A stretch of 64,000 nt of DNA from assembly GCA_902794075.1 (NCBI GenBank), contig CADBGE010000001.1, positions 8,437-72,436 of the forward strand, given 5' to 3'. The translations under genes and the position numbers were made by a program. This document shows, in pieces, positions 1,605 to 28,372 of this stretch. The notes beneath the pieces are model-generated. The model was not told where the DNA came from. It was given only the letters and a program-made list of their open reading frames with translations, and searched no databases. The DNA comes from an uncultured Erysipelotrichaceae bacterium (GTDB lineage: Bacteria; Bacillota_I; Bacilli_A; RF39; UBA660). Each line of letters starts with the position of its first letter. The first letter of the stretch is position 1.

Positions 1605-2075
1605 ATGCCAGGATTAGATTATAAAATATTAAGTAAGAAGCCAATTGTAACAAGAAATGGAGTTAAGTTTCAAGATCTTGCAGTACAGACTATAGATCCA
1701 AATGTTGAAATATCTGGATCATTTCTTGTTGTGAATAAATACTATGTGGCGCGTCCAGATCTTATTTCGCTTGCGGTATATGGTGATGACAAATATGCTG
1801 ATATATTATGTAAAATTAATGGCATATCTAATCCATTTGAACTTAATGAAAACGATGTCATAATATTACCACATGTTGAAACACTTATGGATATAACAAA
1901 TGTTGAACCAATTGAATCAATATTTGTTGATGGAAATAAAGATCCAGATCTTGTGACAAACTTTATGGACACTGATTTACAAAAAGATGTAAATTCATCA
2001 CGTTCACCAAATGAACAAACAAAAGGTATGAGTAATATTGTAGTTGATGATGAAAATGGAATAATATTATATTAA
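1605..2075 (+). CDS. LysM-like domain tail/baseplate protein (T4 gp53 / P2 gpX-like role)
   Basis: YYVARPDLISLAVYGDDKYADILCKINGISNPFELNENDVIILP fits the LysM pattern seen in myovirus baseplate proteins. Tightly packed after the upstream ORF. Confidence 0.45.
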   Translation: MPGLDYKILSKKPIVTRNGVKFQDLAVQTIDPNVEISGSFLVVNKYYVARPDLISLAVYGDDKYADILCKINGISNPFELNENDVIILPHVETLMDITNVEPIESIFVDGNKDPDLVTNFMDTDLQKDVNSSRSPNEQTKGMSNIVVDDENGIILY

Positions 2076-2104
2076 AACAATTTTAAGATTATGTAAGATT
2101 ATAT

Positions 2105-3886
2105 ATGGCTGATACTAATGAAAATAATGAACAATTGATATATGAGTCTTCTGCTGGAGATTATGATGCATATACTCAAGAATCTTTAGATAATTATGAT
2201 GATCTTGAGAACAATGATTCATCAATGATAGGTTATTTTGTAAAAAATGGTCATATAACTGAAGCATTTCCAGAATCAGAATTGAGAGCAAATAATTTAA
2301 TGCCTCCAATAAACCCATTAGATCCTCATGTGTATCATGATCCACCGTATGCTCAGCCATTTGTTGTTAAATTAAAAAACACAACATCAGTTGCTGAAGG
2401 AACTCTTAATATGTCCTCAGACACAGATAACGTACGAATTGACGCCATTTCTATACCTGTAGTTAGACTTAACACAATGGTATTAGAATGGGAAAATATA
2501 GATGCTCTTACTATAACATATACAAAATTCTTACCAGAATTAACGCTTATTGCAAAAGATCCAGCAGGCAAATTTGGATTATCCGTTCGTCCTGGTTTAA
2601 ATAACATTATACAAGTAATCATAATGCCTGCTATTGATGGTAAGTATAAGAAAATTTCATTACCATTTTATATAACTGATGTTGATGTTGACATATATGG
2701 AGAAAAAACAACATACACTGGAATATTAAAACATATGCCACTTATTCAGCAACTTTTAAATTCTGAATCTATAAATTATAAGGCATGTTCTGGTGGAGTT
2801 GACCCAAATGATAAATGCATTGATTTAAATACTGAAAAACCAAACATGTGGCAGTTATTTCATGAAATTGCTGAAAGAGCAAAACTTGGATTTGCTGCAA
2901 TGCCAGGACTTAAAGATTATAATGATCATGCCGTACGTAACATATGTTCACAAAACTATAAAGAATTTCTTGAATACAATCTTAGCATAGGCGGCCTTGA
3001 TGAAAAAATGATTTATGATGGATGGGTTGATATGTATGGATATCTTGTTCTTGTTGATGTCTATAAAGCATTGCATGATGACATTCATCCAAATAATTTA
3101 GCTCTTCATGCTGAAACAGGTTTGCATACACATAATAGTAGATATCCTGATGAAAAGTTTAGTGCAGCCAGAAGATTGCTTACAAATTCAAATATGACTA
3201 AAGCTAAGTCAAATCTTGAAATAGAAGAGTTCTATAATACGTCTAATATTGGAGAAATACAACAGCATGGTACTCTTAACACTATATACTATTTTTGTCC
3301 ATTTGGCAATCACGGAATGAATAATATATTACCTGAACAAGTTAGAATACAAGAAGATAGCACGGATGGTAAATATGTAGAAGATTATGAGGTTCAAAAA
3401 TATTGTGGTTGGTCATTTGTTGGATGCGAAGATTTTAATATATCACGACAAATGGAAATACGAGATGCATATTTAACAAAGTTAAGAAACTCCAGCAGTA
3501 AATTAACGATTAGACTTGCAAATCCTAATTATGCATTACAAAGAGGAACGTTAGTAACAATAGTCAGAATGCGGTATGATTATGAATATAAAATGAGAAT
3601 GCTTAATAGTGAAAGTAACTTATATCCAAATCCACAAGTAAAAGGATTTACACCAGACAAATCAGGTGGTGAAGTCAATGGAATTAGTAATAATGACATT
3701 TTGTATAATGACGGTATAGGTGTCATATGCGCAGAGGATTCAGGAATATATTATATAGATGGCATGAGATTTGATTATATAAATGGAAATGAAAAAATAC
3801 AACAATATCTATATCTTATCAAGAGAGATCCATTGACATCATTAAGTAACTTATCAACATTTGATAGAGCAAAGGCTCCTGATTAA
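2105..3886 (+). CDS. large virion structural protein candidate (baseplate module?)
   Basis: 593-aa uninterrupted ORF, co-directional with neighbours and followed by a hairpin terminator. No motif recognised. Confidence 0.3.
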   Translation: MADTNENNEQLIYESSAGDYDAYTQESLDNYDDLENNDSSMIGYFVKNGHITEAFPESELRANNLMPPINPLDPHVYHDPPYAQPFVVKLKNTTSVAEGTLNMSSDTDNVRIDAISIPVVRLNTMVLEWENIDALTITYTKFLPELTLIAKDPAGKFGLSVRPGLNNIIQVIIMPAIDGKYKKISLPFYITDVDVDIYGEKTTYTGILKHMPLIQQLLNSESINYKACSGGVDPNDKCIDLNTEKPNMWQLFHEIAERAKLGFAAMPGLKDYNDHAVRNICSQNYKEFLEYNLSIGGLDEKMIYDGWVDMYGYLVLVDVYKALHDDIHPNNLALHAETGLHTHNSRYPDEKFSAARRLLTNSNMTKAKSNLEIEEFYNTSNIGEIQQHGTLNTIYYFCPFGNHGMNNILPEQVRIQEDSTDGKYVEDYEVQKYCGWSFVGCEDFNISRQMEIRDAYLTKLRNSSSKLTIRLANPNYALQRGTLVTIVRMRYDYEYKMRMLNSESNLYPNPQVKGFTPDKSGGEVNGISNNDILYNDGIGVICAEDSGIYYIDGMRFDYINGNEKIQQYLYLIKRDPLTSLSNLSTFDRAKAPD

Positions 3887-21321: not shown

Positions 21322-22914
21322 ATGAACAATATGGATGAGAACAAAAAGAATAAACTTAAAGAAAGATTAACAAATGAATTAGGAGATAAGTTAAGAAGTA
21401 TTGAAATGGATGTAACAAATTCATTTCTAAGTGGTAAAATATGTTCTCCATTAATAGCAACAGCAGATAATGCTGTAGTACAGGCAAACGCTATAGCATC
21501 AGGAACACTTAATGCAGCTGCTGCAGCTGGTTTATATATAACTAAAGATGGTCTTAGGTATGACCCAACAGTAATGACTGATGCTGCAGGATTAATTGTT
21601 AATAGTGCAATTCAATCAGTAACATCAGAAATAGTTAGAATTAAAGATAATGCCGTAAAAGATATAACATATATACCTGATCCCTCCATAATATTAAAGA
21701 AAGCTATATCTTATTTTGCATATGACATAAAAAATGACTTAATAGATATAAATAAATTATTAGAAGATTTAAACGTAAACATTGATGACAAAGAAACTGA
21801 AAGACAGGATGAGGCAATAAATAAAACACATAAATCATTAAATAATTTCATATCATATACAATTCCTGAACTATCTAATAAATTAAATACAATTTCAAAT
21901 AATATAAATACTGTGACAGGTTATGCTGCATCATATATGGCTTTTGGACCTGAATGGGTCACAGAAAAAGTATCATATTATATAGCAGATGGATCATATA
22001 TAGCAGAAACATTCGTTAATGAACAAACAAAGAAATTAAATGACTGGAAAATTGAGCAATATAATCGTTTGGCAAAAACAATAGGAACACAAATGACTAA
22101 AAAGTATCAGGAACTTATTAAACAAAATGTTAAAGCAATAAATAATGAAACTGCTATCGTTAAAGAAAAACTAAAATTAAAAGGAACTGCATTGATGCAA
22201 AAAGCATCTCTTGAAATAATGGCAAAGACTGGAATAAAGATACCTATAAACAAAGTAAAGCCTGAAAATTTAAGTAAACTAAAACGAACAACGGAATTAA
22301 GTAAATTATTAGGATTAGCAGCACAAGCATTACCATTAAATGGCCCAAGTACTTCAAATGACAATGAAATAACGAATGCTGAAGTTAAAGAAGACATAGA
22401 GTATTCACAATTATTACAAAAAAGAAGAAATCAATTAAATCAGTTAAAGGATGGAAAGTCAATTGAAATTTCTAATTTAGAATATTCAATAGAAACTGAA
22501 ATTTATTTAGATGAAATAGATTATTTAGAAAGTGAAATAGAAGCATGCAAAAGAACAATTGATAGTGTAGATTTTTATATAAATGAAATTGATGAATATC
22601 TTCTTGAAGGTTCAAGCGTATTTGAAAAATATAAAGAAAATAACATAGAAATAGAAAGAAATTTATTGTCGTCAATGAGACACTCAACGTCCATAGATGA
22701 ACTTATAAATAATATAATGTATTTATTAACTAACAATTCATGGGAACCAAGAAAAGGTAAAACGATGGCATGGGATGATACAATTGATGGTTATTCGGAA
22801 TTTGATAATAAAAATGATTTAGATGTAATTGGTAAAAAGAAAAATGAATATGTTCCAGAAATGTATGCTCAAAACTTTATGAATGCCGGAGGTAATGGAC
22901 CAATTGAACTATAA
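21322..22914 (+). CDS. hypothetical virion-associated protein (tape measure or hub role possible)
   Basis: 530-aa mostly helical ORF directly after the spike gene, with an Ala-rich hydrophobic N-terminal segment. Assignment is positional only. Confidence 0.25.
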   Translation: MNNMDENKKNKLKERLTNELGDKLRSIEMDVTNSFLSGKICSPLIATADNAVVQANAIASGTLNAAAAAGLYITKDGLRYDPTVMTDAAGLIVNSAIQSVTSEIVRIKDNAVKDITYIPDPSIILKKAISYFAYDIKNDLIDINKLLEDLNVNIDDKETERQDEAINKTHKSLNNFISYTIPELSNKLNTISNNINTVTGYAASYMAFGPEWVTEKVSYYIADGSYIAETFVNEQTKKLNDWKIEQYNRLAKTIGTQMTKKYQELIKQNVKAINNETAIVKEKLKLKGTALMQKASLEIMAKTGIKIPINKVKPENLSKLKRTTELSKLLGLAAQALPLNGPSTSNDNEITNAEVKEDIEYSQLLQKRRNQLNQLKDGKSIEISNLEYSIETEIYLDEIDYLESEIEACKRTIDSVDFYINEIDEYLLEGSSVFEKYKENNIEIERNLLSSMRHSTSIDELINNIMYLLTNNSWEPRKGKTMAWDDTIDGYSEFDNKNDLDVIGKKKNEYVPEMYAQNFMNAGGNGPIEL

Positions 22915-22932
22915 CATATGTTAACAATATAT

Positions 22933-23056
22933 AAGTTCATGGATCATCTTAGACGGTCCTTAAAAATGGCAACTATATAATTTATTAAAATGATTATAAA
23001 AAGTTACTAGATGATGATCTAGATATAGTCTAAGATGTTCTAAGATACATAGTATA
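22933..23056. repeat. left copy of a 124-bp long-range inverted repeat
   Basis: 22962..23056 is the exact reverse complement of 41361..41455 (95/95, checked base by base). 22933..22948 also matches 41469..41484, with a 13-nt diverged patch between the two matches. Confidence 0.95.
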
Positions 23057-23057
23057 A

Positions 23058-23065
23058 TATATTTG
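23058..23065 (+). promoter_or_regulatory. Bacteroidota-type -7 promoter element candidate (TAnnTTTG)
   Basis: tatatttg lies immediately after the repeat and ends 13 nt before the terminase ATG. A TATAAT hexamer overlaps it at 23053..23058. Confidence 0.25.
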
Positions 23066-23078
23066 TAAGTGTTAAAAA

Positions 23079-23693
23079 ATGGCAAAAAATAAGTCTGACA
23101 TAAACTATGAATTTGATCCAGTAAAAAGAGAAATTCAAGGAAAAGAAGCTGAAAAAATAATTTGGACAACAAAATCATTGGAAAAAGCTGTTGAAGCTCT
23201 TAATGAAGGACTTCCGTTAAAAGCAAATCCATTTGTTGGAAAAGTTACGCAGCTTCTTAAGCCAGATTTAGTATATAGGAGAACAACAGAAGAAATAGAA
23301 GATTATATAAAATGCAAACAAGATCCTGTGTACTTCGCAGAGAAATGTTTCTTGATGACACCTGAAGGATTACAACAATGTAAGATGCGTGATTATCAGA
23401 AAGATTATTTATATCATCTTAAAGCAAACAGATTCTCAATATTATTGGCAGCGAGGCAAAGTGGAAAAACTCTTAGTCTTATGACAAATGTAACTATTAA
23501 AATTTGTAAAAATGACAATAGATTTGTCAAGATGCTAAAAAAATATTATTATTATATAAATAATAATGATTATATTATAACATTACCATTATTTGAATTG
23601 TATAATATATTATGTAATAAATCATTATTATGGAAAATAAAATATAATATTTATAAACTATTATTATGGCTGGAAAAAAAGGACAAAAAATAA
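23079..23693 (+). CDS. terL: terminase large subunit N-extein (to Walker A) fused to a short split-intein N fragment
   Basis: CKQDPVYFAEKCF...MRDYQKDYL...LAARQSGKT aligns with T4 gp17 CRDDIVYFAETYC...LRDYQRDML...LSRQLGKT. After the T codon at 23469..23471 the sequence becomes Hint block-A-like (SLMTNVTIKI...DYIITLPLFELYNIL) and then stops. Confidence 0.8.
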   Translation: MAKNKSDINYEFDPVKREIQGKEAEKIIWTTKSLEKAVEALNEGLPLKANPFVGKVTQLLKPDLVYRRTTEEIEDYIKCKQDPVYFAEKCFLMTPEGLQQCKMRDYQKDYLYHLKANRFSILLAARQSGKTLSLMTNVTIKICKNDNRFVKMLKKYYYYINNNDYIITLPLFELYNILCNKSLLWKIKYNIYKLLLWLEKKDKK

Positions 23694-24820
23694 ATGCCGA
23701 AAATTCTCACAGAAATCCACAATATTGGAAAAAATTAAATCCAACATGGAGTGATGAAGAATGTGAACAAAAGGCAAATTGGATTAAAAAATCATCAAAT
23801 TATAGATGCATAGAATATTATGAAAGATACTATCCTGAACTTTCGCATGAAGAGCACATATTATTAAGAAAACAAAAATTGAACGAACAAAAAACTAATT
23901 ATCCAAATTGTATAGACTATTATGAAAAACGATTTCCGGAATTATCTCATGAAGAACATTTAAAAATGTTAAATGAATATTCAAAGGCTGAAAATTATCA
24001 ATGTATAGAATATTATGAAAAACGATTTCCGGAATTATCTCATGAAGAACATTTAAAAATGCGTCAAGAGAAAGTAAAAACAGCATTAGAAAAAATGCCA
24101 GATATGTCTGGCCAAAATAATCCAAATAGTAAATCAAATACAACATTAGAACAACGACAAGAACGTTCACCATTTTCAAAAAAATTTTATGAAAAACGAA
24201 ATTTAACCGAAGAAGATAGACATAATTTTACAAGTAATATTAAACGAGAATATAATACGCAATTATCATATTGGTTACATAAAGGATATTCAGAAACAGA
24301 AGCAAAAGAAAAATTAATAGAACGACAAAAAACATTTACATTAGAAAAATGTATAGCAAAATATGGGGAAGAAGAGGGAACAAAAAGATATAATGATAGA
24401 CAACAAAAATGGTTAAAATCATTATATCAATCATTTCAAAATAATGGTGATGGGCGCTCAAAACAATCAAGATTTGCAAAAGAAATAATTAAAGAATGCT
24501 GTAAATATTTAAGTATTTCTATTCCAAAGAAAGAAAAGTATATATCATATAATGAAAAAGTATTTGCATATGATTTCACATATAATAAAAAAATAATAGA
24601 ATTTCAAGGAGATTATTGGCATTGCAATCCTGTCTTATTCGACGAAACTTTTTTCAATAAAGTTAAACAGGCAACAGCTAAAGAAATCTGGGAATATGAT
24701 AGAATTAAAAAACAAGCAGCAGAACATTTCGGATACAAAGTATTATATGTTTGGGAATATGATTATACTAAAGATCCTGAAAATGAAATAAAAAAATGTT
24801 TAGATTTTTTATCTAAATGA
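23666..24820 (+). CDS. free-standing homing endonuclease, Vsr-like / PD-(D/E)xK-type nuclease domain with repeated helical modules
   Basis: The C-terminus AYDF...IIEFQGDYWHCNP...KEIWEYDRIKKQAAEHFGYKVLYVWEYDY fits the Vsr/DUF559-type endonuclease pattern. The N-terminal half has three CI(E/D)YYE(K)R(F/Y)PELSHEEH modules. It overlaps IntN by 28 nt and IntC by ATGA. Confidence 0.65.
   Translation: MAGKKGQKINAENSHRNPQYWKKLNPTWSDEECEQKANWIKKSSNYRCIEYYERYYPELSHEEHILLRKQKLNEQKTNYPNCIDYYEKRFPELSHEEHLKMLNEYSKAENYQCIEYYEKRFPELSHEEHLKMRQEKVKTALEKMPDMSGQNNPNSKSNTTLEQRQERSPFSKKFYEKRNLTEEDRHNFTSNIKREYNTQLSYWLHKGYSETEAKEKLIERQKTFTLEKCIAKYGEEEGTKRYNDRQQKWLKSLYQSFQNNGDGRSKQSRFAKEIIKECCKYLSISIPKKEKYISYNEKVFAYDFTYNKKIIEFQGDYWHCNPVLFDETFFNKVKQATAKEIWEYDRIKKQAAEHFGYKVLYVWEYDYTKDPENEIKKCLDFLSK
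23909..24061 (+). repeat. two near-identical 60-nt direct repeats (93-nt period) inside the HEG
   Basis: 23909..23968 and 24002..24061 (tgtataga[c/a]tattatgaaaaacgatttccggaattatctcatgaagaacatttaaaaatg) differ at one position. A third, diverged copy starts at 23807. Confidence 0.9.
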
Positions 24821-26769
24821 AAACATATATTAAAACATTATTATATAAAATATTATCATTATTAGATTATATAAATTATCATTTTATATATAAAGAAAAA
24901 CTTATAGATAATTATAAGACTATTGAAGACATCAAAATAAAAGACAATAGTATATTTATATTATCAGATAATGGTTTTAATAAATTATCATCATTAATGA
25001 TTAGTAAGCCATTTGAAATATGGCATATAGAATTAGAAAATGGATATAAATTAGAATGCGCTGATGAACATATAGTTTTTCTTAAAGACTTTAAAGAAAT
25101 TTATGTAAATAAATTAAATATAAATGATGAAATAATAACAGATGTTGGTTTATCTAAAGTTATAAATATTTATAGTACATCTGAAAAGATATCTATGTGT
25201 GACACAACAGTTGATCATATCAATCATAGATTTTATTCAAATGGTATTTTAAGTCATAATTCCACAACTACTGCTATATACTGTCTTTGGACTATATTGT
25301 TTAATACTGACAAAACAGGACTAATATTGTCAAAGTCTGGTGCTGCAGGTCAAGACTTATTGAATAAAATAAAAGACATGTACCTATATCTTCCATATCA
25401 TCTGAAATGTGGTACAATGAAATGGAACCAAGGTGGAATATCATTTGACAACAATTCTAATATATCAACAGAAGCATTCTCTCCAACAGCTGGCTTGGGT
25501 AAGACAATTAATTTCTTAATATTAGATGAGTTTGCATGGTGTCCTCAGAACGAAGTTGAATTATTCTACAACAATATTATTCCAACTGTTACTACTATTT
25601 CAGATAGTAATGTATGTATAATGTCAACACAAAATGGATTTAATTTATTTTATAAGATATGGAAAAATTCTGTTGAAAAGAAAAGTATATATGCACCATT
25701 TAAAATAGATTGGGACCAAGTACCACAATGGAATAGTGAAAAGAAATGCTGGGAAAAAAGAACAGATGAATGGAAAAAGATGATGATAGGTGTCCTAGGT
25801 TCAGAAGAGGCATTTTATTATCAATATGGAACACAATTTTTAGCACCAGATGGATGTTTAGTATCTCGTGAATGTCTAAAAAGAATACATGATAATACTA
25901 CATTGTTTGAAAAAATAACTGAAGAGCAATGTGAAGAAATAAACTTACAGATACAATTTAAAGACGCATTATATATAAAACCAGGATATGACATAAGAAA
26001 TTTTGTTGATGGTAAACATTGGTATGTAATAACAATTGACCTTGCAGAAGGTGGTGGTGGAGACTACACTGTTTTTAATGTATTTGAATATTTAAGTAAA
26101 GATAAATTTGAACAGGTAGCATATTGGCATAGTAATGAGGTAGACATTGAACTTGCATCATTAGAATTTTGGTTATTGTCCGGACAGTTATTTAATAATG
26201 ATAGATGCATATGGAGTGTTGAATGGAATACTTATGGAGCATTGTTTTATAATTTATTGAGAAATTATAATGAACCTGATTTTAGTCCAGAAACAGCATG
26301 GAGAAATAATATAGTAAACGAAGGTATAGACTTATTTTATTTTGCGAGATATCCTCGTCAAGCAATAGATGATGATGGAATGGGTACTAAAAAGATTCAA
26401 GGAATACGTTTTAGTAATGCAAATAAATCTATGGCTTGTTCATTGTTAAGACTTATGTTTGAAAAGGGTGACATCATTATAACTGATTTGGTTACTGCTG
26501 GTGAGCTTGAGAACTTTGAAGATAAGAATGGAAACGGTAGTTATAAAGCATCTTATGGACATGATGACATAATAATGACATGTTGTCAATTGCCATTACT
26601 TAAACAAACAGCAAGATATAAAGATTATGTAGAAGAATTTGAAGCATTTAAGATAGGCGGAAAATTTAATGAAACAAATAATAGTGACAATGTGAATACT
26701 TTATATAATTTTAATATTTCAAGAGAGGAAGAACTGTTTACACCTCCTGAAGGAATGCAACAAATGTAA
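24817..26769 (+). CDS. terL: split-intein C fragment fused to terminase large subunit C-extein (ATPase Walker B plus nuclease)
   Basis: Residues 1-148 carry Hint blocks B (GYKLECADEHIVFL), F (ISMCDTTVDHINHRFYS) and G (NGILSHN). From Ser149 (25261) the sequence is STTTAIYCLW...INFLILDEFAW...TQNGFNLFYKIW...SYGHDDIIM, collinear with T4 gp17 TVVAIFLAHF...AMIYIDECAF...TPNGLNHFYDIW...GYHDDLVM. Confidence 0.85.
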   Translation: MKTYIKTLLYKILSLLDYINYHFIYKEKLIDNYKTIEDIKIKDNSIFILSDNGFNKLSSLMISKPFEIWHIELENGYKLECADEHIVFLKDFKEIYVNKLNINDEIITDVGLSKVINIYSTSEKISMCDTTVDHINHRFYSNGILSHNSTTTAIYCLWTILFNTDKTGLILSKSGAAGQDLLNKIKDMYLYLPYHLKCGTMKWNQGGISFDNNSNISTEAFSPTAGLGKTINFLILDEFAWCPQNEVELFYNNIIPTVTTISDSNVCIMSTQNGFNLFYKIWKNSVEKKSIYAPFKIDWDQVPQWNSEKKCWEKRTDEWKKMMIGVLGSEEAFYYQYGTQFLAPDGCLVSRECLKRIHDNTTLFEKITEEQCEEINLQIQFKDALYIKPGYDIRNFVDGKHWYVITIDLAEGGGGDYTVFNVFEYLSKDKFEQVAYWHSNEVDIELASLEFWLLSGQLFNNDRCIWSVEWNTYGALFYNLLRNYNEPDFSPETAWRNNIVNEGIDLFYFARYPRQAIDDDGMGTKKIQGIRFSNANKSMACSLLRLMFEKGDIIITDLVTAGELENFEDKNGNGSYKASYGHDDIIMTCCQLPLLKQTARYKDYVEEFEAFKIGGKFNETNNSDNVNTLYNFNISREEELFTPPEGMQQM

Positions 26770-26785
26770 ACAATATTTTTATTTA

Positions 26786-26793
26786 TATAAATA
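26786..26793 (+). promoter_or_regulatory. T4-late-promoter-like box TATAAATA
   Basis: Exact TATAAATA ending 16 nt upstream of the ATG at 26810. Confidence 0.3.
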
Positions 26794-26809
26794 ATACTTA
26801 ATATAGAAT

Positions 26810-28372
26810 ATGATTAACTTAAGTACATACTTGATAATGGAGGCTAACCAAAAACGTCCAAGCGGCCTCGGAAAAATAAAAGATAAGTCAGTTGAGCAAG
26901 ATGTTGAAATGATTGCAGGTGATGTTTATGATTTGTCAGACAGTAACCGATATACTGAAACGATGAAGTATTACAAAGGTGAAGGTAACGGATATATCAC
27001 TGACAAAGAAGGCCATGTATATGATGTGTTCACAAGCACTGAACAGGGTGATGCAGGACGAATTGCTGGAGGCTCAACATATAGATATGTAACGATAAAA
27101 AATGTCCATGGAGTTGACATTAATTTTAGAGGTTATTCTGCAGTATTTTCATCATCGTATGGCATGGACATAATTGATGACATCAAAGCAGGTATGTATC
27201 TTGAAGATTATCTTGCAAAGCATTGGAATGATATTTCAAATAGTGATGTACAAAAGAATAAGGAAATAGTGAAACTTAAAGAAATGGGTAATGCTGAGGC
27301 AAAGACATATAATAAACAGAAAGAAGAATCAGCAGCAGATAAAAGACTTAGATTCTGGGAAAGATACATTATTATAAGAAACATTAAAATTACAGTAAAG
27401 AATGGAGATATTGATATTGACACAAAGGATGCTGATGACCATTATAAAAGACAGTTAGGTAAAGAAAAATATAAAAAAGAAGGCGGATGGAATGAAGAGG
27501 AACTTTATAAAGAATATATATCTGCATTAAAGGATGCTCTTAAACCTGCTATATCAAAAATATTCGGTGATACATTTGGTTGTTCAATATCGGATATGAA
27601 TGGTCTTGTATTTAATATTGTTGCAAAGTCAAACAGTAACTTGCCTATGATACGATTAGGATTTGATACAAAGAAAAAAGAATTTGTTGAGTTGGCATAC
27701 GAAAAAGCAAAGCTACGAGGCAAGAACGAATGGGTTGGAACAACAATTGAACCGGCGATTGGTCCAACAGTAACACTTGTAAAGAAAGATGCTAATGAAC
27801 ATATGATTGAAATATTCACCAATGCGTCCAAGGAATGGATGAAACTTAACAAAGGAAAGCAGAAAGAATGGGTTGATGCAAACTGGGAATCAATATGGAA
27901 GAATGGAAATTCAACTCATTGGTTATATGGCAAAAGTACAATGTCAAAAGGTGAAGCAAAAAAGAAAGCTGCAGATAATTATAAGAAAGATCTTGCAGCT
28001 CATAAATGGGATACATCTGGAGATACAATAACATTCCTTACTGAGTTCATTTCACAATTTATGACTGAACCTGAAAAGATTGAGAAAGTCACGGGCGAGG
28101 AAGTTGAGAACTCACCAATTGAGAAGCCTCGTCGTGGAGAAAAAACAAAGATGGGTAAGGGTGCACGTGCTGCTCAGGAAAAGAAAATGGATGCTTGGCA
28201 CAATGGTGAAAGAAAACAGAATGTATCGAACTGCTCTGATGCAAAGCTTAAGATGAACTATGAAATTTGCAAGGAGAAAGGATATGAAAAAGAAGCCGCT
28301 CAACTTAAAGCCGAAGCAATAAAGCGCGGTATAGTGCTTGAGAGTATTATGAACTATATAGAATTATATTAA
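26810..28372 (+). CDS. hypothetical Lys/Glu-rich protein (possible large internal/virion protein)
   Basis: 520-aa ORF after terL. The N-terminus MINLSTYLIME is weakly CTS-like with an I-x-E site. No enzymatic motif accepted. Confidence 0.3.
   Translation: MINLSTYLIMEANQKRPSGLGKIKDKSVEQDVEMIAGDVYDLSDSNRYTETMKYYKGEGNGYITDKEGHVYDVFTSTEQGDAGRIAGGSTYRYVTIKNVHGVDINFRGYSAVFSSSYGMDIIDDIKAGMYLEDYLAKHWNDISNSDVQKNKEIVKLKEMGNAEAKTYNKQKEESAADKRLRFWERYIIIRNIKITVKNGDIDIDTKDADDHYKRQLGKEKYKKEGGWNEEELYKEYISALKDALKPAISKIFGDTFGCSISDMNGLVFNIVAKSNSNLPMIRLGFDTKKKEFVELAYEKAKLRGKNEWVGTTIEPAIGPTVTLVKKDANEHMIEIFTNASKEWMKLNKGKQKEWVDANWESIWKNGNSTHWLYGKSTMSKGEAKKKAADNYKKDLAAHKWDTSGDTITFLTEFISQFMTEPEKIEKVTGEEVENSPIEKPRRGEKTKMGKGARAAQEKKMDAWHNGERKQNVSNCSDAKLKMNYEICKEKGYEKEAAQLKAEAIKRGIVLESIMNYIELY

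Follow-up and report, generated by a model that had tools for sequence, protein, structure and literature searches.

How can a terminase large subunit (TerL) be made from a gene that breaks off inside its Walker A loop and resumes in another frame, after a different open reading frame (ORF)? This question is raised by a locus of contig CADBGE010000001.1 (assembly GCA_902794075.1), from an uncultured Erysipelotrichaceae bacterium, of which we analyzed a stretch of 64,000 nucleotides that is called the window below. ORF1 encodes the N-terminal part of TerL followed by an N-terminal intein fragment (IntN), ORF2 a putative Vsr-like endonuclease and ORF3 a C-terminal intein fragment (IntC) followed by the remainder of TerL (Table 1). 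The three ORFs use three different frames, with an overlap of 28 nt between ORF1 and ORF2 and an ATGA overlap between ORF2 and ORF3, and the coordinates, frames and overlaps given by a first-pass annotation of this DNA match the ORF list exactly. That annotation had read the locus as a fractured TerL gene with an atypically split intein, a core reading that is borne out by profile and fold searches returning inteins only and by at least 12 other contigs with the same layout; because independent contigs show this three-ORF arrangement again, chance falls far short of explaining the pattern. We consider it probable that TerL is made here as two polypeptides that are rejoined by class 1 protein trans-splicing, and that a Vsr-like gene lodged in a loop fractured what was formerly a mini-intein. 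The layout is that of a textbook fractured gene, a kind of system that is already known; what is new is the predicted Thr1/Ser+1 nucleophile pair, the evidence that Thr, Ser and Cys interchange at position 1, the helix-loop-helix at the break and the presence of all allele states in one TerL clade.

The terminase junction and the intein fold

Both ends of the interrupted protein can be placed on T4 gp17. Residues 59-130 of ORF1 align with gp17 residues 93-166, up to the Walker A GK and thus as far as the first-pass annotation had seen a resemblance, and the N-extein matches the PHROG terminase large subunit. ORF3 residues 149-650 align with gp17 from residue 167 onward (E 2.7e-31), in agreement with the earlier claim that ORF3 resumes where gp17 continues after Walker A. 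When the two parts were joined in silico, the spliced TerL gave a continuous alignment with gp17 without any gap across the junction, gp17 RQLGK-T167 aligning ungapped to RQSGK plus S149. A close intein-free homologue (P0173, 643 aa) reads ...FLSCRQSGKSTTTAIYCLWVILFNTDK..., which is exactly RQSGK/STTTAIYCLW (here and below, a slash marks a junction). Among the loci that we classified (80 loci from a scan of metagenome contigs, which were up to 474 kb long, several of the loci labelled human gut, together with loci fetched earlier and the window), 30 are intein-free and read GK/S[TV][TV]TAI, which was checked at the DNA level too, while intein-bearing relatives (L002, L003 and most of the contiguous forms) have a Cys directly after GK. 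Since the gp17 alignment, P0173, the 30 intein-free loci and the relatives with Cys after GK all point to the same site, we placed the N-junction of the intein directly after the Walker A GK, which gives the reading GK/T...HN/S.

This placement changes two earlier proposals. The first-pass annotation had put the junction after GKT or GKTL and had proposed a Ser1/Ser+1 pair, but gp17 and the intein-free homologues place the junction after GK, so that residue 1 is Thr131. Ser133, the third intein residue, was rejected as Ser1, its column being N, L, F and others in relatives. Residue +1 is Ser149 (25261..25263), the Ser/Thr of Walker A, and the nucleophile pair predicted from these alignments is Thr1/Ser+1. 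The ligated peptide, previously written with GKT(L)STTT, becomes RQSGKSTTTAIY with the corrected junction.

The segment between the exteins is recognizable as an intein. The first-pass annotation had called for a Hint-domain search with ORF3 residues 1-148, and residues 34-148 indeed match solved inteins by sequence: VidaL (1.9e-5), gp41-1 (1e-4), then CatC and NrdJ-1. A 29-sequence family profile searched against the PDB returned VidaL (8.5e-14), gp41-1 (2.4e-12), CatC (7.9e-10) and NrdJ-1 (8.9e-5), and nothing else. ORF1 was then fused to ORF3(1-195) and modelled with AlphaFold2 (AF2), using a 73-row alignment bridged by contiguous relatives: mean pLDDT was 83.3, with about 85-95 over the intein, compared with 41.7 for a single-sequence model of the fused intein. 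A Foldseek search of the PDB with the fused-halves model gave inteins or intein-like HINT domains for all of the top 50 matches, including VidaL (E 2.9e-9, TM 0.82 when normalised to VidaL), whose alignment of 226 columns runs from the IntN strand into IntC and covers both fragments. According to this model, the fused halves are predicted to form the HINT (horseshoe) fold.

The residues expected of a splicing intein are also in place. Invariant columns over 29 relatives are A-D-x-H of block B, the Asp of block F and the terminal S-H-N, and the block B His, the block F Asp and His, the terminal HN and Ser/Thr+1 are present in 26 of the 26 aligned loci, a catalytic set that is retained with T, S and C alike at residue 1 and in contiguous (cis) as well as split inteins. 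In the window, blocks B, F and G, Walker B and GHDDIIM were all found where the first-pass annotation had placed them; block F reads MCD...NHRFYSN and block G GILSHN/S, with Asp129, His147 and Asn148 present, and His85 of block B belongs to an invariant column. The four cysteines of this intein, Cys143 and Cys179 in IntN and Cys81 and Cys128 in IntC, are non-catalytic.

Other splicing classes were considered as well. A class 3 intein was rejected for want of a WCT triplet, block B+2 being Val, F:4 Asp and G:5 Ser in our own block mapping, and the Cys beside F:4 is not invariant, relatives having MSD, MGD or MYD. Upstream of block B, under a provisional mapping from PolB16, lies a candidate column for the NX-motif His of Ser1 inteins; relatives have H, N, A, F, R or Y there, without any association with residue 1, and the window has Ser.

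In the proposed mechanism, TerL would be made as two chains, TerL(1-130)-IntN(74 aa) and IntC(148 aa)-TerL(502 aa), whose intein halves would dock into one HINT domain, probably with the help of the two amphipathic helices that flank the break. An N-O acyl shift by Thr1 would then be followed by trans-esterification by Ser+1 and by cyclisation of Asn148, before an O-N shift would finish the peptide bond. Lys130 would in this way be joined to Ser149 in a 632-aa TerL with an intact P-loop, RQSGKSTTT, and the predicted junction peptide of the ligated protein is ...AARQSGKSTTTAIY. As for the origin of the split, an endonuclease gene would have lodged in a loop of a once-contiguous mini-intein, thereby fracturing the TerL gene; this gene is presumably co-transcribed, its stop overlapping the start of IntC (ATGA).

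The break and the gene that lies in it

IntN carries block A only, blocks B, F and G all being in IntC. Since IntC alone covers residues 18-128 of the 128 residues of gp41-1, the break falls after the first helix, at the atypical 'S2' site known from AceL-TerL and GOS-TerL (PMC13014065). The likeness to these two inteins that had been noticed in the first-pass annotation therefore holds for the split position, but not for the 'very short' N fragment: only the IntN core, of about 27 aa, is short, and the total of 74 aa exceeds the 15-37 aa of natural atypically split inteins (PMC13014065). A distant relative, L003, has an IntN of 31 aa (CFSDNTLLKIRNKITGEIQEITAKELFEMGE), beyond which the IntN of the window has a 21-aa insertion and a 26-aa tail; the insertion, which had been put at roughly this length, exists and is conserved in relatives. 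In the AF2 model, IntN consists of a strand (137-143), a helix (147-155), a hairpin (158-170) and two further helices (171-178 and 183-200), with pLDDT values of about 86-92.

Amphipathic tails had been described on both halves, and they do exist and are conserved: the IntN tail across about 120 N-fragment clusters (WKxKYxLYKxIY) and the N-terminal helix of IntC in IntC relatives (LYKLISLLDYIDY). They are not separate extras, however. In contiguous relatives such as P0170 (900 aa), both tails form one unbroken segment, ...TLIWKSKYFIYKRIYNKSKFSSIYKRILSLLDKIDNK..., so that the tails are the two arms of a single helix-loop-helix insert. Judged from these alignments, the endonuclease gene appears to sit in the loop of this insert, and the helix pair may act as a zipper that aids association of the fragments.

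A repeat of about 30 aa, CIEYYEKRFPELSHEEHLKM, occurs in at least three clear copies in the N-terminal two-thirds of ORF2, and these repeats are presumably DNA-binding, like the NUMOD-type regions of the EDxHD family. Near-identical copies lie in 23798..24061 (CI(E/D)YYEKRFPELSHEEHLKM twice and one variant once) and are repeated in the DNA too; the repeats also produce a spurious 94-aa minus-strand ORF at 23895..24179. Intact homologues of 384-408 aa are found at the same position in 12 related loci, where their 3' end overlaps the start of IntC by 4-53 nt, and the more distant endonuclease of L003 (463 aa) aligns with this family, in which D303, E312, G315, Y317, W318, H319 and E364 are invariant.

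That a Vsr-like endonuclease lies between the halves, as had been claimed, agrees with two lines of evidence. When 13 homologues were aligned by hhalign with E. coli Vsr (its sequence verified against 1cw0), the E-value was 3.2e-4 at a probability of only 38.6%, and catalytic and intercalating residues fall into register, namely D303 with D51, E312 with the F62 position, W318-H319 with W68-H69, W342 with W86 and D345 with D97, the aligned ORF2 residues being invariant or nearly so among homologues. The same pattern, including the extra Glu at the F62 position, characterizes the Vsr-like 'EDxHD' homing endonucleases (PMC2677866, PMC3239194). Secondly, tblastn found ORF2 homologues annotated 'putative VSR endonuclease' between the N- and C-intein halves of a split DNA polymerase of Aeromonas phages. 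As in I-Bth0305I and the EDxHD family (Taylor et al. 2011, PMC3239194), N-terminal repeats with a putative DNA-binding role precede a C-terminal Vsr-like nuclease and the Asp...Glu...Trp-His...Asp pattern is shared, ORF2 having more N-terminal repeats; the ORF2 family profile gave no direct sequence match to the 3r3p chain of I-Bth0305I. ORF2 had no match in the PDB, either as a single sequence or as a 13-sequence profile, and only one family of unknown function in PHROGs, and the restriction-endonuclease-like Pfam family MTES_1575 was below threshold in 11 of 13 members, with DUF559 in 2. Based on these comparisons, ORF2 is a putative free-standing Vsr-like (EDxHD-type) homing endonuclease gene, the activity of its product being predicted. 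Intein-free alleles and cis-intein alleles without an endonuclease gene are its candidate targets.

Relatives of this endonuclease also occur elsewhere. The only DNA match in the phage database (70.6% over 206 nt of the TerL C-part) was LR756500.1, an uncultured phage of 462 kb, in which an endonuclease homologue adjoins the TerL match at about 195.7-196.9 kb and three endonuclease-like places are present in the record. Weak homologues of the nuclease domain were found in Prevotella Lak megaphages.

Vsr-like endonuclease genes occur in group I introns too (Dassa 2009; I-Bth0305I, PMC3239194), so the interruption could in principle be removed from RNA by a group I or another intron carrying the endonuclease gene, as the first-pass annotation had itself proposed for checking. 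No intron, group I introns included, was matched by Rfam in 22500..27500 at E-values up to 10, nor in the whole window at gathering thresholds, and on either side of the endonuclease gene a conserved intein half is encoded in frame, the two halves building a HINT fold. Two programmed frameshifts, giving one contiguous intein, would be another way round the split, and the heptamer A_AAA_AAG is found at 23675..23681 in the ORF1 frame, where a -1 shift leads into the ORF2 frame. This heptamer has the sequence of the dnaX-type slippery site. No slippery site is present at the ORF2/ORF3 ATGA, however, and two split loci, L036 and L049, are without any endonuclease gene, which speaks against both the intron and the frameshifts. 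Altogether, we regard removal at the RNA level or by frameshifting as very improbable. A programmed -1 frameshift was rejected in its own right, since L006, L014, L020 and L022 lack the heptamer and overlap lengths run from -33 to +91 nt; these letters probably just encode the Lys-rich GKKGQK start of the endonuclease, and a -1 slip would fuse the N-fragment to the endonuclease.

The insert is rich in homopolymers and in AT, and therefore prone to indel errors, with a GC content of 17-26% compared with about 30% in the flanking TerL coding sequence. Such errors could have broken a contiguous gene during sequencing or assembly, or the locus could be a decaying pseudogene. Against this, three-ORF loci with intact ORFs are found in independent assemblies, from different samples and with 48-65% divergent sequences. 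The N-fragment had 297 matches in 90% clusters, all of about 200-220 aa among the 120 matches listed, and the endonuclease starts at an ATG of its own, with an N-terminus that is conserved, all of which leaves an artefact or a pseudogene with next to no probability. Trans-splicing of a split intein remains our preferred explanation.

Around the locus, the 64-kb window contains no second copy of the TerL, intein or endonuclease of these families, and no tRNA genes or Rfam families at gathering thresholds. No Shine-Dalgarno sequence is obvious by eye ahead of the start codon of ORF2 or ORF3. In a scan of 22800..27000, no plus-strand terminator was found between the ORFs, and promoter-like sites numbered 39 for 34 expected.

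Table 1. Features of the interrupted TerL locus (positions numbered along the window)
Feature	Positions	Strand	Extent or residues	Basis or remark
ORF1, TerL N-part and IntN	23079..23693	+	204 aa	
TerL N-extein, ending in the first half of Walker A (...LAARQSGK)	23079..23468	+	aa 1-130	gp17 alignment, PHROG
IntN	23469..23690	+	Thr131..Lys204, 74 aa	family alignment; stop codon 23691..23693
Intein residue 1, predicted first nucleophile	23469..23471	+	Thr131, codon ACT	family alignment
Block A strand	23469..23504	+	12 aa	within IntN
Insertion of IntN	23505..23567	+	21 aa	helix 147-155 in AF2 model
beta2/alpha1	23568..23612	+	15 aa	within IntN
Amphipathic tail helix of IntN	23613..23690	+	26 aa	helix 183-200 in AF2 model
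ORF2, putative free-standing Vsr-like homing endonuclease gene	23666..24820	+	384 aa	
N-terminal repeats of ORF2	e.g. 23798..23866, 23909..23968, 24002..24061	+	~30 aa each	sequence repeats
C-terminal Vsr-like nuclease domain of ORF2	about 24569..24766	+		D303, E312, W318, H319, W342, D345
ORF3, IntC and remainder of TerL	24817..26769	+	650 aa	
IntC	24817..25260	+	Met1..Asn148, 148 aa	PDB matches, family alignment
N-terminal amphipathic helix of IntC	24817..24894	+	26 aa	helix 206-229 in AF2 model
Block B, GYKLECADEHIVFL	25042..25083	+	His85	within IntC
Block F	25189..25242	+	Asp129	within IntC
Block G, GILSHN	25243..25260	+	His147, Asn148	within IntC
TerL C-extein	25261..26769	+	502 aa and stop	gp17 alignment, Pfam Terminase_6N and 6C
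Walker B, ILDEFAW	25519..25539	+		within C-extein
Nuclease motif, GHDDIIM	26557..26577	+		within C-extein

Threonine at position 1

If trans-splicing takes place, its first step would depend on a residue that is unusual for an intein. Across 118 N-fragment clusters, the residue after GK is T in 52, S in 38 and C in 28, and nothing else. Its codons TGT, TCT and ACT form a path of single steps, and at least 19 changes of residue 1 were counted by Fitch parsimony on a neighbour-joining tree, the Cys1 forms P0055 and P0057 nesting beside the Thr1 group of the window. Thr1 is not restricted to split forms, as it is found in four contiguous inteins (L024, L039, L042 and L043), of which L039-L043 have the Cys1 forms L034, L037 and L040 as sisters. 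In these contiguous Thr1 forms, an insert of 208-215 aa lies between the Lys and the Ser of the TerL P-loop and, inside such a loop, its excision seems obligatory. With residue 1 limited to T, S or C through at least 19 switches, and with the block B His and blocks F and G preserved throughout, this pattern argues that Thr1 is a working nucleophile. The chemistry has a precedent, the S1T mutant of the Tli pol-2 intein being able to splice (Tori et al. 2010, PMC2807308).

Several points weigh against splicing, or against splicing by Thr1. Pfam Intein_splicing stayed below its model threshold on ORF3, and IntN alone gave only chance matches in the PDB, without an IntN sequence match. In block B, the Thr of TxxH is replaced by an invariant Ala (ADEH); the first-pass annotation had rightly noted this Ala but had taken it for a peculiarity of this intein, while it is family-wide and shared with VidaL (CAFNH), an active intein that splices in about a minute (PMC13014065). 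As a nucleophile, Thr is at a steric disadvantage, and several inteins lose their activity on a C1S change (PMC10189870); the natural inteins catalogued by 2009 included none with Thr1 (PMC2807308), and a 2025 review gives Cys1 and Ser1 combinations only (PMC11766414). Our literature search, of incomplete coverage, provisionally turned up no natural intein with Thr1; where Thr was named, it was in general wording of the kind 'Ser, Thr or Cys'. Finally, Thr1 and Ser1 N-fragments themselves end in a complete GKT or GKS, which leaves room for a non-spliced complex.

This last point, together with the absence of Thr1 from the 2009 catalogue, leads to a different explanation, in which the intein halves would not splice but only dimerise non-covalently, giving a two-chain TerL in which GKT of the N-fragment is the end of Walker A. 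The Thr1 and Ser1 lineages do recreate GKT and GKS where the N-extein ends, the additional pair of helices could be there for association alone, and Aeh1 NrdA provides a precedent (PMC3045599) of a fragmented phage enzyme assembled without splicing. What such an assembly would not call for is the near-invariance, across T1, S1 and C1 forms, of residues that serve chemistry only (the block B His, the block F Asp and His, the His-Asn and Ser/Thr+1), nor the Cys1 found in 28 of 118 clusters, Cys not being a Walker A residue, nor the lack of Ala, Gly, Asn or any other non-nucleophile at residue 1. Contiguous Thr1 inteins, if they did not splice, would leave their whole insert within the P-loop, and TerL pentamers have been argued to be unable to form with the intein present (Kelley et al. 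2016, PMC5050341). We thus consider a non-covalent, unspliced TerL unlikely.

Allele states, relatives and known systems

Four allele states coexist among relatives of the window: empty, cis, and split with or without a homing endonuclease gene (HEG). Besides the 30 intein-free loci, a contiguous intein of 203-229 aa is found in 11 loci, a split intein with an endonuclease gene in 12 (the window counted), a split intein with a decayed endonuclease gene in one (L002), and halves that abut without any endonuclease gene in two (L036 and L049). In L002, which has Cys1, the endonuclease gene has decayed to ORFs of 52 aa and 157 aa (1678..2880) and both intein halves are intact; L036 and L049 are still split after endonuclease loss, the stop of the N-fragment overlapping the start of IntC by 4 nt in L036. 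Among 50% representatives, the N-fragment had 953 matches, including full-length TerLs, some with a contiguous intein and others lacking one.

Relatives with a split and with a contiguous intein are interleaved. Over 456 nt, the IntC DNA of the split locus L085 and that of the cis locus L043 are 90% identical, and the main difference within the pair L014/L024 is about 1.3 kb in place of about 60 nt in the loop. Compared with L006 and L007, respectively, the window is 55% and 65% identical in IntC, 52% and 56% in the endonuclease and 63% and 58% in the C-extein, the exteins ranging from 58 to 73% in these two comparisons. Such conservation of the insert, like that of the C-extein, fits ongoing selection or recurrent homing and, at the level of sequence comparison, the gene-fracturing model of Dassa et al.

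In the more distant L003 (3921..9637 of a 141-kb Logan SRR33648772 contig), TerL is cut at least three times, a layout shared by L004 and L005: an N-fragment with a 31-aa Cys1 IntN is followed by an endonuclease gene, by an IntC-TerL piece that ends in a short IntN, by a 570-aa ORF consisting of an endonuclease-like region, an IntC, an 11-aa extein (CILIDEASHIE, Walker B) and a third IntN, and by another endonuclease-like ORF. In P0034 and P0038, on contigs of 13 and 11 kb, an IntC with a close relationship to this family (...NHRFYSNGILSHN/STILRYIAGLQEPTAGD...) is fused to an ABC-transporter-type ATPase (PF00005), residue +1 again being the Walker A Ser, which suggests that this split-intein family may have moved to the P-loop of an unrelated ATPase.

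The closest published counterparts of the layout are the fractured genes of Dassa, London, Stoddard and Pietrokovski (2009, PMC2677866), in which the gene of a phage DNA enzyme is likewise found in two same-strand ORFs with one intein half each, separated by a free-standing Vsr-like homing endonuclease gene; a terminase locus is among their eight host enzyme types. The overlap between endonuclease and IntC is 6-69 bp there, compared with 4 nt here and 4-53 nt in relatives. Later work has employed gp41-1, NrdJ-1 and IMPDH-1 of that study as canonically split inteins whose IntN is long; the present IntN, by contrast, holds block A only, and the empty, cis, split-with-HEG and split-without-HEG states are here found together in a single TerL clade.

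AceL-TerL, GOS-TerL and the consensus Cat-TerL (Thiel 2014; Bachmann and Mootz 2015; Stevens 2017, via PMC11766414 and PMC13014065) share with the window a phage TerL host and a split after the first helix that leaves blocks B, F and G in IntC. They combine Cys+1 with either Cys1 or Ser1 and have an IntN of 25-37 aa (PMC11766414), whereas Thr1/Ser+1 and an IntN of 74 aa are found here, and they differ from the window by its 21-aa insertion, its 26-aa IntN tail helix and its 26-aa N-terminal IntC helix. CatC gave significant sequence (7.9e-10) and fold matches to the IntC of the window, yet only about 28% identity. The first-pass annotation had likened the split site to that of AceL-TerL and GOS-TerL; published descriptions set these inteins apart, as their Cys+1 cannot sit at a GK/S site, where residue +1 is the Walker A Ser, and they are a different intein at another TerL site.

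The P-loop site itself is known from the TerL1-a inteins of mycobacteriophages (Kelley et al. 2016, PMC5050341), which also lie between the Walker A Lys and Thr/Ser, a 'classic' P-loop site. Those inteins are contiguous and in a TerL of the terminase_1 type; here the host is of the T4 gp17/terminase_6 type and the intein is split, with a free-standing endonuclease gene and Thr1. Natural splitting with hydroxyl nucleophiles only is known from PolB16 OarG (Pasch et al. 2023, PMC10189870), which is atypically split as here, and from Aes123 PolB1/CL, and Aeromonas phage PolB1 loci have a homologous 'putative VSR endonuclease' between the intein halves; both have Ser1 and a DNA polymerase B host, compared with Thr1 and TerL here. 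Since PolB16, a slow intein, is the one natural example described so far that is both cysteine-less and atypically split (PMC13014065), the window intein would be the second atypically split example free of nucleophilic cysteines, with Thr rather than Ser, though with four cysteines elsewhere.

A cultured phage shows a related arrangement. In Vibrio phage Va1 (L088 1649..5066, MK387337.2), TerL is annotated as two overlapping coding sequences, the first ending ...QNFE/CVSGSTIINIFDKETNEFKDIRIDELERLLNS in a short Cys1 IntN away from Walker A (break ...QNFE/CVSGSTIINIF...) and the second having a Vsr-like nuclease region (EFQGNYWH) fused in frame to an apparent IntC; neither intein nor endonuclease is annotated in the record. 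This short IntN resembles that of AceL-TerL.

It is about as likely as not that the window belongs to a large, undescribed TerL intein family of gut and rumen phages at GK/S, in which Thr would be a natural and common position-1 nucleophile (44% of clusters) that interchanges with Ser and Cys in cis and split forms; the window copy would then be a thiol-independent, atypically split Thr1/Ser+1 intein with a helix-helix zipper. Gene callers render TerL here as two or three 'hypothetical proteins', and about 300 N-fragment clusters are public and unnamed. One TerL clade displays the empty state, the mini-intein, the split with a HEG, the decayed HEG and the split without a HEG, which are the stages of the 2009 gene-fracturing model, and close relatives that differ by T, S or C at position 1 make up a natural mutagenesis series for the tuning of oxyester versus thioester chemistry. 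Split inteins without cysteine nucleophiles, with the fold mostly in IntC, are wanted for semisynthesis and for labelling under oxidising conditions. If splicing does begin at Thr1, these would be, to the extent that we could establish, natural inteins of the Thr1 kind that Tori et al. (2010) reported as unobserved; they would provide a new scaffold for cysteine-free protein ligation and would do away with the rule by which a natural intein must begin with Cys or Ser or else, in classes 2 and 3, with a non-nucleophile.

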